Below are positions 32,086-40,125 of a stretch of DNA of 64,000 bases, piece by piece. The first letter of the stretch is position 1, and every line of letters starts with the position of its first letter. The DNA comes from a virus. The notes beneath the pieces were generated by a model. The model ran no database searches. It saw only the letters and a program-made list of their open reading frames with translations, and had not been told where the DNA came from. Where the stretch lies: positions 10,761 through 74,760 of the IMG/VR virus record IMGVR_UViG_3300035183_001040. One strand, 5' to 3'. The translations under genes were made by a program, and so were the position numbers.

Positions 32086-32099
32086 GGCTTCGGACCTCC

Positions 32100-32356
32100 T
32101 TCGACTGGCTGCTCCTGGCTGGAAAAGGCGAAAGGCCCGCGAAGACCTTTTCGGGGTCTGCTCGCGGGCCCTATCTCCCGCGCAGCGGCGAACTGCGCGG
32201 GATGAAGCTCGGCGCCTGGCGCGCTGGTGCGCCCCAAGCTAACCGCACCGGAAGAAGCCCGAAAGTCGGGGAGGGGATGCCAGGCTCCGGACTCCCCCCG
32301 TGCGCGGCTACACGAATGATGCCGCAGACGCCGAAAGCCGTCAAGCAGGCGCGCGG
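32100..32356. ncRNA. Putative structured RNA between sheath and tube genes
   Basis: Multiple stems, e.g. 32134-42/32162-70 and 32176-85/32193-202; no credible ORF. Confidence 0.45.
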
Positions 32357-36283: not shown

Positions 36284-36709
36284 CTACCCCGAGGTGACTG
36301 GAACGTTGGTTACGCCGAAGCTCGGGCGAAAGCGGGCGCTGTAGGGGTAGAGCGGGACGCCGAAGATGTCCGCCAAGCGCTTTGCCCATCTCACATACTC
36401 GCGTTCGAGAAGGTCCGGGTACGTCTCGCCCTGTTTGGAACCACGAAGGGTCAAGTCGCCAAGCTTCTCAGCGGCAAGCTGCGCCGGCGCACGTTTGAGC
36501 AAGCACTCGAGGTTGTCGAGATGGTCAAGGATGCTGACGACGCGCGCGATTGCGTCCGCGTCGACCAGCAGGTTCATGGCCTGTTCGAGCAGGAAGACGG
36601 TCTGCACGGGGCGCGGGATGCCGAACTGCACAGACCCCGCGAACGAGACTTCCATGTAGCCGGTGTGGTACCGGATTCGTTCCCTGTCCTTGCTCGTGAG
36701 GGCTGCCAT
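36284..36709 (-). CDS. Head-tail adaptor protein
   Basis: 141-aa helical protein after the capsid region (ALTSKDRERIRYHTGY). Confidence 0.55.
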   Translation of the reverse strand: MAALTSKDRERIRYHTGYMEVSFAGSVQFGIPRPVQTVFLLEQAMNLLVDADAIARVVSILDHLDNLECLLKRAPAQLAAEKLGDLTLRGSKQGETYPDLLEREYVRWAKRLADIFGVPLYPYSARFRPSFGVTNVPVTSG

Positions 36710-36733
36710 GAGGGGGCGAAGAGCGGGTCTGCG

Positions 36734-37126
36734 TTAGTCTGGCACCTCTTCGAGGGCGACGCCCGCGATTTTCATCTTCTCGATGGCTCCCGAGCCGTAC
36801 AAGGAGTCGCTCACGATGGCGCCTGCGCCGAGTTGAATCATGCTCGCGCCCCAACTGATCGTTGTTGAGACCTTCACGCGGTACTTCTTCGCGGTCGCGG
36901 ACTCCGCGGCTGCGGCCATCTTGCCAGGCGGCGGAAGGACGGGTTCGACGGCCAGCTCGGCTTTCTTTTCTTGCGCGTCGTCGTCTCCGACCTTCTGCGG
37001 CGCAGCGCTGGGCTTCTGCGGCAGCGAGGAAGGCGGAGGCGCCTCGGGATTGTCATCCTGCGTGAGCGCCAAGGGGACGTCGAGCTTTGCAGATTCGAGC
37101 GGGTCTACGGATTTCTTCGAGGCCAT
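36734..37126 (-). CDS. Hypothetical protein downstream of capsid
   Basis: GGAGAG RBS; Pro-rich N-terminus and small C-terminal domain. Confidence 0.7.
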   Translation of the reverse strand: MASKKSVDPLESAKLDVPLALTQDDNPEAPPPSSLPQKPSAAPQKVGDDDAQEKKAELAVEPVLPPPGKMAAAAESATAKKYRVKVSTTISWGASMIQLGAGAIVSDSLYGSGAIEKMKIAGVALEEVPD

Positions 37127-37139
37127 CTTGCTCTCCGTG

Positions 37140-37790
37140 GGACGGGGAAAAGTAGCGGCGACGCCGACCGCGGTTCAAACCAGGCTAAAAGCCCAAGGTT
37201 TACGAGCAGGGCTAGGCTCGATGCTGGGCGAAACCGCGGTCGGCGTCAGACGTGACCAGGCGCACCGAAACGGGCGAACCGTATCGGAAGCGGTGGTGCG
37301 TCCTTGGCACGGAGGCCTTCCGAAGAAGGCTCGCAGCCATGCCGCCGAAAGCGGCCGCGGTTCCATGGCCCGAAGGCCAGGGTTTGCGACCGCTTACGGT
37401 ACCGAGCCGCGAAACGCGAGGTTTCGCGCGAGGCTCTGCCGAAAAGACCTCGACCGAAGAGGTCTTCGGCGAATGCGCCCGGCACCTACAACCCGGCGGC
37501 TGGCAAGTGCTCACGGCCGAGGCCGAAAGCGAGCCGCAGGGGTGGCAGAGAGCACCTTTGCCGAGGTGCTCTGAAGGTTGGCGCGAAGAAGCCAAACCAC
37601 TGCCGAAAAAAGCACTGACGGCAACAGGAGCACGTTGCCGCGTGCAAGGCCGCCCGAACGAATCGGAGCAGCCCCGGCGCAAACCGGCCGAGTCGAACGG
37701 CCAGGTCCGCAGGAAAAGAGCAGACCCCCGCGCAGCCCTCTGAGGAGAGGAGGAAGCTGAACTCGAAGGCTGCGCGGGAGTCTGCGCCAT
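37140..37790. ncRNA. Putative large (~650 nt) structured non-coding RNA
   Basis: About ten stems, including a perfect 16-bp stem 37160-75/37232-47 and an 18-bp stem 37720-37/37768-85; no credible ORF. Confidence 0.6.
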
Positions 37791-37795
37791 CGTGG

Positions 37796-39205
37796 TCACT
37801 CGCCGTGCTCGATGACGGCGAAGCGCTTGTAGCGGGCAACACCGCCCGTCGCACCGTCGGTGCGCAAGGGCCAGTCGCCGATGAACTTCCACGCCGTCGA
37901 CACCATGTCCTGCAGGCGGTTGAGCGGTGCGCGGATGATGAGTTGAATGCGGTCGCTCATCACCTCGATGCCGTTGTTGACGATGTGCGGGTCCCCGACC
38001 TTGCCGAGCAACCCTGCTTCCGTGAGCAGGTTGGACAGGTCGGAGTAGTACTCGTAGATGCCGCCCTGCGCCGTGAACAGGATGCGGTGCACCTTGACGT
38101 TGTTCACGTTGTAGAGTTCGCCCGCGAACGGGTCGCGCTTGTCGAAGACCTGCGTTGCGTTGCTGCCGCCGTCTCCGACCACCGTACCGGCGCCGCCGAC
38201 CGGGGCTCGGCTGTTGCGGAAGAAGACGGTGTTGAGAAGCTCGCCGATCGCGAACTTCTTGTACATGTAGTAGTCGGGCAGCGCGGTGAGCAGACGCTGG
38301 AACTCGTTGTCCTGGTATATCTTCGCCTGCGAGACCGGGTCGAGGTGCGCGTGGAAGCGTCCGTCTGGGTGCTCGGGCACGTTCTGTTGCCAGAAGTACG
38401 ACACCGCGGCTCGAATGTCCGCGAGCGTTGGCAACGAGGAGCTCAAGATGGTGTCGATGCTGTTGCCACCGCTGACGCGGAAAATCTCCGTCCGGTCGAC
38501 GGAGAAGACGTAGGCGCGGTCCGCGACGGTGACGGCAGCGTCGAGCGTGAGCGTTCCCGGCCCCGTCTCGTCTCCGGGCGTGTCCGGCGTGAAGCCGATG
38601 ACGTTGCGCGTCACATCGTTGCCGCCCGAGAACGTGTGGATGAGCAGCGGGTTGGTCGAGGAGACGAAATCGTACTGAACCGGCGAGCCGCCTGCGAGGT
38701 TCGGGTTGCGCGCGCGCGTGAAGCCGTTGAGGCGCTTGACGCGAAGCGTGGTTGTGGCGGCTTGCGCACCGTCCGCCACCGTCCAGCCGCTCAGCGCTGC
38801 GTTGTACATCTGGTCTCGGACCTTGGTGTCGAGCGCGAGCGCGGCCATGAGGCCGAGTTGGTGGCAGTTGCGCAGGAACAGGTTCGCGATCGCCACCATG
38901 CTGGTCGGCATGTGCGTGTCGATCGCGCCGGCGTACTGCTGAAGCTGCGCGGTCCACTGCTCCTGCGGGAACGACGCGACGGCGGGCTCGTCGCCGGGTT
39001 TGAGCGGCGAGGCATCGACGGTCATGAGACCGGCGGCGGTGAACACCATGGTGTCACCGACACCTGCCGGCCACGGCTGCGGGGTTGCCTCGCCCCGGAA
39101 CAGAATGCGCGGAAACAGCGCATCGTGGAACGCGCGCTCCAGGATGTTCTGCTGAACCAGCGCACGAATCTGAGGCGCTTGGAGAATGACGGAAAAGTCG
39201 GGCAT
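37796..39205 (-). CDS. Major capsid protein
   Basis: 469 aa after the scaffold; HK97-fold-like spacing (GDTMVF...LQQYAG...FHAHLDP...IGELLNTVF...DPLNR-like APLNR). Confidence 0.85.
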   Translation of the reverse strand: MPDFSVILQAPQIRALVQQNILERAFHDALFPRILFRGEATPQPWPAGVGDTMVFTAAGLMTVDASPLKPGDEPAVASFPQEQWTAQLQQYAGAIDTHMPTSMVAIANLFLRNCHQLGLMAALALDTKVRDQMYNAALSGWTVADGAQAATTTLRVKRLNGFTRARNPNLAGGSPVQYDFVSSTNPLLIHTFSGGNDVTRNVIGFTPDTPGDETGPGTLTLDAAVTVADRAYVFSVDRTEIFRVSGGNSIDTILSSSLPTLADIRAAVSYFWQQNVPEHPDGRFHAHLDPVSQAKIYQDNEFQRLLTALPDYYMYKKFAIGELLNTVFFRNSRAPVGGAGTVVGDGGSNATQVFDKRDPFAGELYNVNNVKVHRILFTAQGGIYEYYSDLSNLLTEAGLLGKVGDPHIVNNGIEVMSDRIQLIIRAPLNRLQDMVSTAWKFIGDWPLRTDGATGGVARYKRFAVIEHGE

Positions 39206-39270: not shown

Positions 39271-40125
39271 TCAACGCGGGATTGTAGCAACGTCGGGCAG
39301 TTGAAGCCCCATGTTTGCGAGGAGCTTGTGGAACTCCTCGGCCGGCATCTTGGTTGCGTCGAGCGTCCCGTTGCTTGCCCCGTCGCGCGTCACCTTTTCG
39401 GGCTTCGGTGCGGGGGGCAAGCCACCTGCCTCTTCGGGTTTGGAAGCGGTCGTCGCCGGCTGCTCCCGAATCTCGTAGAGGTAGGGGTGGGTTTTGCGCA
39501 GCTCGGTGCGGAAGAATTGCTCCTCGTCGAAGGCTCGGAGTTCCTCTTCCGTCTTGCCGCGCATCATTCGGCGCAAGAGCTCCACGGCGTAGTCGACATC
39601 CTGCACGCCACACTTGACCGCGGCAAGGCGCAGCTCGGCCTCTGCTTCCTTCGCGTCCAGGTGTGACTGCAGTTGTGCGGCTCGCTTCTCCGCCTTCGCC
39701 CTCGCCGAGCGCTCCTTGCGAAGTTTGTCGTCGAGGTCCTGCAACTGCCGTTGCAGGCGTTGGAGCTCACGACTCGAAGCATGAGCCTGGCCGTTGCGTT
39801 GCGGCTGTTGAGGAGCCGAGCGCTTCGGCTGGTTACCGGCTTGCTTCGGTTGCTGCTTGATGCTCATGGCGGCTTTGCGAAGCAGGTCCTCGTGCGAAGC
39901 GAACCCCAAGGCTTTCGCCTTTTCGTCAAGCTCGCGCAAGAACTGCTTCTTGCCTCGTTCCCTCTCCTCGGTCTTGATTCGCGCCATCGAAGATGTCGGA
40001 ATCGAGATCACCTTCGCACCGCCGTTCTTCTGTGAAGAGCCGGAGTGCTTTGGTTGATCCTGCTGAGAAGAGGATGGTTGCTGAGATGCCGTGCTTACCG
40101 TCTCGGTTGTCTGCTCGTTGTCCAT
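39271..40125 (-). CDS. Capsid scaffolding protein
   Basis: Q/E/K coiled coil; AVKCGVQDVDY...LRKTHPYLY; immediately upstream of the capsid gene. Confidence 0.8.
   Translation of the reverse strand: MDNEQTTETVSTASQQPSSSQQDQPKHSGSSQKNGGAKVISIPTSSMARIKTEERERGKKQFLRELDEKAKALGFASHEDLLRKAAMSIKQQPKQAGNQPKRSAPQQPQRNGQAHASSRELQRLQRQLQDLDDKLRKERSARAKAEKRAAQLQSHLDAKEAEAELRLAAVKCGVQDVDYAVELLRRMMRGKTEEELRAFDEEQFFRTELRKTHPYLYEIREQPATTASKPEEAGGLPPAPKPEKVTRDGASNGTLDATKMPAEEFHKLLANMGLQLPDVATIPR

Follow-up and report, generated by a model that had tools for sequence, protein, structure and literature searches.

Phages express their capsid, connector and tail-completion proteins from a single long late transcript, and for each few copies of the latter two, capsid subunits are required by the hundred. 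Textbooks describe two solutions, a terminator or a stabilising hairpin placed after the capsid gene. What, then, is the role of the 669 nt without a gene (37127-37795) that separate the major capsid protein (MCP) gene from the gene of a 130-residue protein (p130) in our window, the 64-kb stretch of DNA that was analysed as a portion of a 74,760-nt IMG/VR virus record? The late genes all lie on the minus strand, and p130 is followed by more head and tail genes as far as the sheath gene (Table 1). Only two sequencing runs were found to contain the window's stretch, and no RNA run was among them; both are DNA, from microbial mat metagenomes, and may represent the source sample.

The MCP shares 25-28% identity with the annotated major capsid proteins of six cultured phages: Kromp, a phage of Streptomyces, together with three of Ralstonia and two of Komagataeibacter. 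In p130, the N-terminal 80 residues are proline-rich and predicted to be disordered, while the C-terminal part of about 50 residues forms a small conserved β-rich domain. This domain is predicted confidently (pLDDT about 88-91), its best likenesses in the PDB are weak and SH3-like, and the similarity of the predicted fold yields no lead on function; the protein may be a decoration, cement or connector component. In p130 and its orthologues, a short conserved N-terminal motif (e.g. FDPVEAAKI) precedes a linker rich in Pro and Ala for which disorder is predicted. In one relative (L124) the orthologue reaches about 370 residues. A search of IMG/VR with the p130 protein returned no match because the protein is too divergent. 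An MCP search of the same database yielded 13 and then 80 loci (148 confirmed relatives), most of which have 450-1000 nt between the MCP gene and the p130 orthologue.

Table 1. Features of the capsid-p130 region, in the order of the late transcript (window coordinates)
Feature	Position	Strand	Details
Scaffold-like gene	39271-40125	minus	upstream of the MCP gene
MCP gene, 469 aa	37796-39205	minus	match to phrog_1357 major head protein
First long hairpin past the MCP stop	37712-37788	minus	arms 37720-37740/37765-37785 (21 nt), then UCUUUUCC at 37712-37719
About six more hairpins	37400-37711	minus	several with UUCG-type loops; from folds
H1, hallmark hairpin	37349-37395	minus	covarying outer and inner stems, AAA/AACC 3x4 internal loop, UUCG loop
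Pc 5' strand GCGGC (long-range closing helix)	37341-37345	minus	linker UUUCG before it
Hv1, variable hairpin, UUCG loop	37305-37339	minus	inside the closed domain
Hv2, variable hairpin	37249-37303	minus	inside the closed domain
P3, long hairpin	37160-37247	minus	P3a 16 bp perfect 37232-47/37160-75; P3b CCAG/CUGG 37224-27/37180-83
Type-B H-type pseudoknot at the P3 tip	37190-37220	minus	S1 CGAGC/GCUCG 37216-20/37203-07; S2 AGCCC/GGGCU 37209-13/37190-94
Pc 3' strand GCCGC	37155-37159	minus	from the fold
Pyrimidine-rich tail UACUUUUCCCC	37144-37154	minus	family consensus (A)C(C)UUUU
p130 Shine-Dalgarno sequence GGAGAG and ATG	37131-37136 and 37124-37126	minus	ATG 28 nt past Pc
p130 gene (130 aa)	36734-37126	minus	next downstream of the gap

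A first-pass annotation, made from the letters of the window alone, had described this largest gap as consisting mostly of stems, and every pair that it listed was found, including the perfect 16-bp helix 37160-75/37232-47; the remaining stems appear in the folds. It had also called for a comparison of folding energy with shuffled sequences. The whole gap folds with z = -10.3 on both strands, none of 20 shuffles being equal to it, and both of its parts contribute, the 5' part (37400-37795) with z = -7.4 and the 3' part (37140-37399) with z = -6.7. The dismissal of the overlapping open reading frames as not credible has likewise been borne out. Pfam and PHROG searches with these frames returned nothing of weight, and tblastx and open reading frame comparison among the relatives detected no conserved reading frame or protein similarity in the gap, so that the conserved protein frame which the annotation had named as fatal to its RNA reading was searched for and not found. 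Frames that happen to be open in the gaps of relatives differ by clade, are non-homologous and have a junk-like composition. Moreover, in the 30 aligned members the inner segment of the hairpin H1 changes length between conserved flanks, and the differences are not divisible by three. ARAGORN predicted no tRNA or tmRNA gene in the whole window. Together with the covariation described below, which the annotation had proposed to look for among the MCP-downstream regions of related phages and which is present in 30 sequences of H1, these observations leave us in little doubt that the gap is non-coding, that it is strongly structured and that it houses, on the mRNA strand, an RNA family that is conserved and covaries.

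The conserved part of this RNA is the core formed by the last approximately 255 nt of the gap (37144-37395), which comprises H1, a closing helix, a long hairpin tipped by a pseudoknot and a pyrimidine-rich tail. Across the family, the core ranges from 150 to 330 nt, with the smallest members (L036, L093) measuring about 150-175 nt. At the level of nucleotide sequence, blastn with the gap finds a single short 33-nt block, 37357-37390, which is 85-94% identical in relatives whose MCPs share only about 60% identity with that of the window; being better conserved than the MCP, the block first stood out as special. It lies within H1, a hairpin conserved in sequence that had not been singled out in the earlier annotation. 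Throughout the family, H1 has the same order of elements: an outer stem of 5-10 bp, the near-invariant AAA/AACC internal loop, a CC/GG step, a pyrimidine-pyrimidine mismatch (C.U in the window) and an inner stem of 4-7 bp, which is capped by a small loop, often UUCG, although its apparent invariance is inflated by the regular-expression and pattern searches through which members were gathered. In another subclade we found the variants AACUCC...UGGAUCGC and AACUUC...UGAAUCGC.

Pairing in H1 is well supported by compensatory change. Among 30 distinct sequences, 87% of the cells are paired, against 65% after column shuffling and 33-38% after sliding of the 3' partner columns. The covariation score of 0.52 compares with 0.13 in the shuffles and was reached by none of 500 of them. 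Both sides have changed in 11 of the 15 pairs, and the outer stem, which played no part in selecting the sequences, shows 8-16 double changes per pair at its four well-paired variable positions. R1, a covariance model built for H1, recovered five additional divergent copies with E < 0.1, each located past the MCP gene of another locus, and one of these carries a compensatory change from C-G to U-A in the conserved CC/GG step. A tertiary pairing between AACC of the H1 loop and a GGUU following the second strand of S2 was also considered and was dropped because the GGUU site varies without compensation.

Downstream of H1, the rest of the core forms a closed domain. A linker, UUUYGG in the family, is followed by a strand of 5-7 nt that pairs with a strand approximately 100-250 nt further downstream, and this closing helix (Pc) covaries among the relatives (GGCAGC/GCUGCC, GGAGGU/ACCUCC, GUGGCGA/UCGCCAC, GAUGGCG/CGCCAUC and GGCGGUG/CACCGCC). 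The domain holds between zero and three variable hairpins, two of them in the window, and then P3, whose tip carries the pseudoknot. The parses of Pc and of the pseudoknot come from our own scripts and reading, with shuffle controls. We relied on explicit parses rather than on column pair counts because in MAFFT alignments the pseudoknot region shifts by one or two columns between members.

The pseudoknot occurs in two subtypes. Type A, with the consensus CCC-(U)UA-CGNNN-GGG-UAAU-NNNCG-GUU, scores 22 or more in 24 of 30 members, compared with 8.7% of 600 dinucleotide shuffles. Its S1, S2 and P3b change in sequence while pairing is retained, and P3b does better than 95% of the shuffled sequences in 15 of 22 members. 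Type B has the consensus CGAGY-YU-S2-RCUCG-U(U)AAAC...-S2'-YUAA and is carried by the window, where loop 3 reads UAAACCUU, and by L014, L015, L016, L018, L024, L026/28, L033 and L080. Here, too, the helices vary in a compensatory manner, with S2 appearing as AGCCC/GGGCU, AGCCA/UGGCU, CGUCU/AGACG, CGACC/GGUCG or CGUCG/CGACG, and P3b as CCAG/CUGG, GAUCAA/UUGAUC, GCUGC/GCAGC, CACCA/UGGUG or GCACA/UGUGC. The structure thus displays the features of an H-type pseudoknot, namely crossing helices, compensatory changes and loop lengths that fit the sense orientation. In one type-B member (L014:5823-5880) an extra UUCG hairpin is inserted in loop 1, which reveals a site where the fold tolerates insertions.

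The 400 nt next to the MCP stop are of a different nature. In the relatives, the stretch between the MCP stop and H1 consists of 160-400 nt of hairpins that share no common sequence except in near-identical contigs, and in the window this 5' part is a variable array that lies outside the conserved fold. The first hairpin of the array has a terminator-like look, which is not kept in the relatives. A terminator scan of the gap returned four weak sites against 1.7 expected; among the U-rich tracts are UCUUUUCC after the first hairpin and UACUUUUCC after Pc. The tail that follows Pc does not look like a canonical intrinsic terminator, as there are usually two or three non-U bases after the helix, and in many members the U-run is interrupted by C. 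Elsewhere in the window, the minus strand has another non-coding gap (32090-32356) that separates the sheath gene from the tail gene after it. This gap folds with z = -4.1 relative to shuffles and ends in a long GC hairpin followed by CCUUUCGCCUUUUCC, a terminator-like arrangement without the H1 motif.

On which strand does this RNA act? The first-pass annotation had left the strand ambiguous, and that ambiguity can now be lifted in favour of the minus strand by the statistics of UUCG loops and the loop lengths of the pseudoknot. In the gaps of 30 relatives (16.3 kb), the MCP-sense strand contains 72 copies of C(UUCG)G and the antisense strand eight, compared with 12 sense and 10 antisense copies in the MCP coding sequences (34.9 kb). 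Hairpins with C(UUCG)G were initially described in an mRNA and contain the most stable RNA tetraloop known (PMC4371310). Among tetraloops closed by at least four pairs in our set, UUCG is by far the commonest (57 of 475), and GNRA is enriched on neither strand. The mRNA of those first hairpins was a phage T4 intercistronic RNA, and we know of no comparable stability status for CGAA, the complement of UUCG. The pseudoknot points the same way. Its loop 1 has 1-4 nt and spans a stem of 5-7 bp; in H-type geometry a loop of 1-4 nt can cross the deep groove but not the shallow one, which would make the sense orientation the only feasible one. Minimum free energy gives the opposite preference, the antisense strand being more stable in 22 of 30 members, but we judged this measure unreliable for strand assignment because the antisense H1 loop forms G.U and U.U pairs and because the test windows entered coding sequence. 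The counts of G.U versus A.C in H1 (10 versus 6) do not decide between the strands. We regard the loop statistics as decisive: to judge from the sequences, the RNA is read from the minus strand, which for the late operon is the sense strand. A search for a promoter-like site in the gap found none, and this result, together with the UUCG statistics and the loop geometry, suggests that the RNA is part of the late mRNA.

The RNA was also compared with known families. Against Rfam 15, cmscan of positions 36500-38500 at E ≤ 10 gave only miRNA and snoRNA noise far below threshold, and nine canonical relatives at E ≤ 5 gave two sub-threshold chance matches (a miRNA precursor and an lncRNA region) outside the element. 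Accordingly, ROOL, GOLLD, Mu-gpT-DE, introns, RNase P, tmRNA, riboswitches and ribozymes are excluded as currently modelled. The family is absent from Rfam, and the earlier description of an unclassified RNA stands for the window and these nine relatives. A group I or group II intron was considered separately and rejected, as the alignment of the MCP with that of relatives lacking the element covers its whole length (residues 1-469) and the element lies past the stop codon. In the same light we consider whether the capsid message might be split from the cistrons that follow it, either by a ribozyme that cleaves itself or at a dedicated site of RNase processing. Small ribozymes typically have a pseudoknotted core in which a few near-invariant bases are left unpaired, phage genomes commonly contain many classes of ribozyme, and a cut at this position would let the two halves of the message differ in stability. 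However, no hammerhead, twister, pistol, hatchet, HDV-like or other Rfam ribozyme was matched at E ≤ 5-10 in the window and the nine relatives. The strand order P3b, S1, S2, S1', S2', P3b', in our reading, is unlike the nested double pseudoknot of HDV-like ribozymes, and we could not name a candidate cleavage site. We therefore consider cleavage or dedicated processing very unlikely as the function of the element.

The distribution of the element among relatives is more informative. Of 76 distinct related loci in IMG/VR, at least 40 carry the RNA family, which was found only downstream of this MCP family, with a p130 orthologue coming after the RNA in every relative. A pattern scan of IMG/VR with the H1 flanks produced many chance matches, yet all 19 of those with a proper stem follow an MCP homologue, down to 41% identity. 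blastn with the gap against 50,697 phage records gave no match; no laboratory phage with the element is known because the MCPs of cultured phages are only 25-28% identical. A search of 185,579 species genomes returned just two contigs of metagenome-assembled genomes, L095 and L096, labelled Acidimicrobiaceae and Armatimonadetes, the former carrying a type-A element. These contigs may be prophages or binning carry-over, and they offer the sole hints of a host.

In a tree of the MCP (76 rows, quick IQ-TREE search), a 22-row clade whose branch has 99% SH-aLRT support contains all eight type-B rows, including the window, and the other 54 rows contain 31 of the 32 type-A members. On this comparison the distribution of the pseudoknot subtypes agrees with the MCP tree and so indicates vertical descent. 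Fourteen loci lack the element, and they form three to five clusters nested among carriers. The element thus appears to be old and vertically inherited and, if it is ancestral, to have been lost repeatedly. In element-less relatives the gap is only 73-100 nt long, and in about 10 of 13, judged by eye, it holds one long GC-rich hairpin and a U-run reaching the Shine-Dalgarno sequence. A strict terminator scan separates the two groups weakly, with hits in six of 13 element-less gaps and in 10 of 30 element-bearing ones, counts that understate what can be seen by eye because the scanner misses bulged stems.

Presence or absence at a single locus might also be expected of a site acting at the DNA level, a mobile element or a decayed gene, such as the target of a homing endonuclease, a site of recombination or packaging, a MITE-like insertion or a pseudogene. 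HNH endonuclease genes do adjoin the element in two lineages, where they lie between the MCP gene and the RNA and never between the RNA and p130, and the conserved H1 DNA near them could be a homing target. These are free-standing genes (L078:3906-4526, the same as in L009, and L136/L155). Nevertheless, the stems covary as the sequence changes, which favours a single-strand structure over a protein site in duplex DNA, and the strand-asymmetric excess of UUCG points to RNA. Mobility is contradicted by the agreement between pseudoknot subtype and MCP tree as well as by copy number: the gap used as a DNA query against its own 74.8-kb record found only itself, R1 detected a single copy of H1 within the 64-kb window, and a search for flanking repeats around the gap found none. 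A pseudogene is at odds with the lack of frame conservation. Altogether, we see hardly any likelihood that the element works as DNA, moves or is a relic of a gene.

What could an RNA at this position do? Four observations led us to propose a cis-acting module: its fixed site, its replacement by a plain hairpin in some relatives, the ultra-stable array and the abutment of the ribosome-binding site. We hold with moderate confidence, on grounds of structure, position and relatives, that the core may be an intercistronic mRNA element which uncouples expression of the capsid gene from that of the genes downstream. Together with the UUCG-capped array, the core would provide a stable 3' boundary for an abundant scaffold-MCP segment of the message, a boundary that could act both as an attenuator and as a barrier against 3' exonucleases. 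The core might also limit or gate the entry of ribosomes at the p130 start. Capsid protein would in this way be made in large excess over the downstream head-completion and tail proteins, through formation or stabilisation of a 3' end, through gating of p130 translation, or through both. We infer the regulatory outcome, its route (termination, stability or translation) and the existence of a reader of the H1 loop and pseudoknot. The near-invariant AAA/AACC loop and the pseudoknot suggest specific recognition, by a protein, by a ligand or through RNA tertiary contacts, since a generic stabiliser needs neither. Because the model does not name the recognition partner, our confidence in the mechanism goes no higher than this and leaves room for rivals. 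The first-pass annotation had offered, besides a large phage RNA, an mRNA processing or attenuation module setting capsid stoichiometry, and it is the latter reading that the comparison with relatives supports best.

A more distant role is conceivable, too. The element might be a stable non-coding RNA acting in trans, either cut from the late transcript or ending at its own tail; its targets might then be host or phage mRNAs, a host enzyme or the assembly of particles. We rate this reading as doubtful. Such a function would account for the compact, helix-closed core, for near-invariant loops and a pseudoknot of the kind typical of stable functional RNAs, for a structured 3' end with a U-rich tail that resembles the 3' ends of sRNAs, and for core nucleotides that are better conserved than the neighbouring capsid protein. 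On the other hand, no promoter-like site was found within the gap and no complementarity target was identified. The 3' end of the element always abuts the next ribosome-binding site, even where genes have been inserted upstream, and its substitution by a plain hairpin in several lineages is hard to reconcile with an indispensable role in trans.

The same abutment might instead suggest a translational operator for p130 alone, either riboswitch-like or protein-binding, in which a ligand or phage protein bound to H1 and the pseudoknot would control the ribosome-binding site. The distance from the end of Pc to the next start codon is short, 17-44 nt in the 16 members where it was read off and 28 nt in the window. 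In about half of the predicted folds examined, including those of the window, L055, L087 and L093, the CU-rich tail can pair with the purine-rich Shine-Dalgarno sequence. The near-invariant loop nucleotides suggest a specific binding site, and the predicted architecture, with a closed domain beside the ribosome-binding site, would be compatible with a riboswitch. Pairing of a U-rich tract with the Shine-Dalgarno sequence is, however, also seen beside plain terminator hairpins, and for this reason the tail pairing may be trivial. In addition, p130 orthologues are presumably expressed without the element in element-less relatives, Rfam contains no known aptamer matching the window or the nine relatives, and the SH3-like similarity of the p130 C-terminal domain is weak (Z ≤ 3.6). 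Control confined to p130 thus seems quite unlikely to us.

A bolder reading deserves mention. The core of H1 and pseudoknot might represent a new functional class of RNA with an activity of its own, either a self-cleaving or self-processing ribozyme or a sensor of the MCP, the scaffold, p130 or a metabolite. We think this rather unlikely, but if it were true, the stoichiometry of capsid to neck would be set by an RNA machine and not by a plain terminator.

The locus is of interest because an uncultivated, contractile-tailed lineage known only from metagenomes has placed a pseudoknotted conserved RNA at the 3' site of the capsid gene instead of one of the textbook devices, and some loops of that RNA are better conserved than the capsid protein itself. 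The coexistence of carriers and plain-hairpin branches provides a natural comparison, with and without, between an ornate RNA and a simple terminator. The family is also a covariation-supported addition to the structured phage RNAs without an assigned function. Its core is small enough for chemical probing; cryo-EM may suit the larger members, and those of about 150-175 nt are better for probing or crystallography.

How does this RNA compare with known systems? The earlier annotation had envisaged an RNA of about 650 nt, in the size class of ROOL and GOLLD, which are about 600-800 nt long. That estimate has to be revised downwards, given a conserved part of about 255 nt, minimal relatives of about 150-175 nt and no match to either family. 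ROOL and GOLLD are large, ornate, phage-associated RNAs (PMC5737381; 10.1101/2024.12.08.627333). The likeness extends to a large structured RNA of unassigned function associated with phages, whereas the present core has 150-330 nt, no tRNA gene was found in the window and the element is embedded in an mRNA between two cistrons. A 2023 catalogue lists 10,006 candidate viral RNAs from large-scale viral sequence data (PMC10690425) and may already include the present motif.

Operators offer a second comparison. The E. coli rpsO/S15 pseudoknot is a translational operator. The leader of T4 gene 32 is likewise described as a pseudoknot translational operator (PMC10690425 and its references 48-50). 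In both, as here, an H-type pseudoknot is followed downstream by single-stranded RNA that leads to the ribosome-binding site, but in our family a long hairpin carries the pseudoknot at its tip, about 60-90 nt from the ribosome-binding site and not adjacent to it, and there is the additional hairpin H1.

In terms of position, the nearest counterpart is Mu-gpT-DE, an element downstream of Mu-like major head genes that is much smaller and simpler than the present one. The motif is registered as Rfam RF03012 (PMC7657543). Both are conserved RNAs of unassigned function located directly downstream of a phage major head gene; however, the model of Mu-gpT-DE gives no match in the window or the nine relatives and the MCP belongs to another family. 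Since the covariance-model match failed, the likeness is positional only, and Mu-gpT-DE is the closest positional analogue of our element, not a relative. With regard to the regulatory problem itself, the T-phi terminator of T7 sits just after capsid gene 10, and hairpins follow pufA in the Rhodobacter puf operon. Both occupy, like the element described here, the site where the gene of a very abundant structural protein is followed by genes needed in few copies. Those devices are single hairpins without conserved loops or a pseudoknot, and C(UUCG)G hairpins in known cases stand alone, whereas here such hairpins adorn both a variable array and a larger conserved fold, a tertiary-looking core of 150-330 nt that ends in a non-canonical tail.
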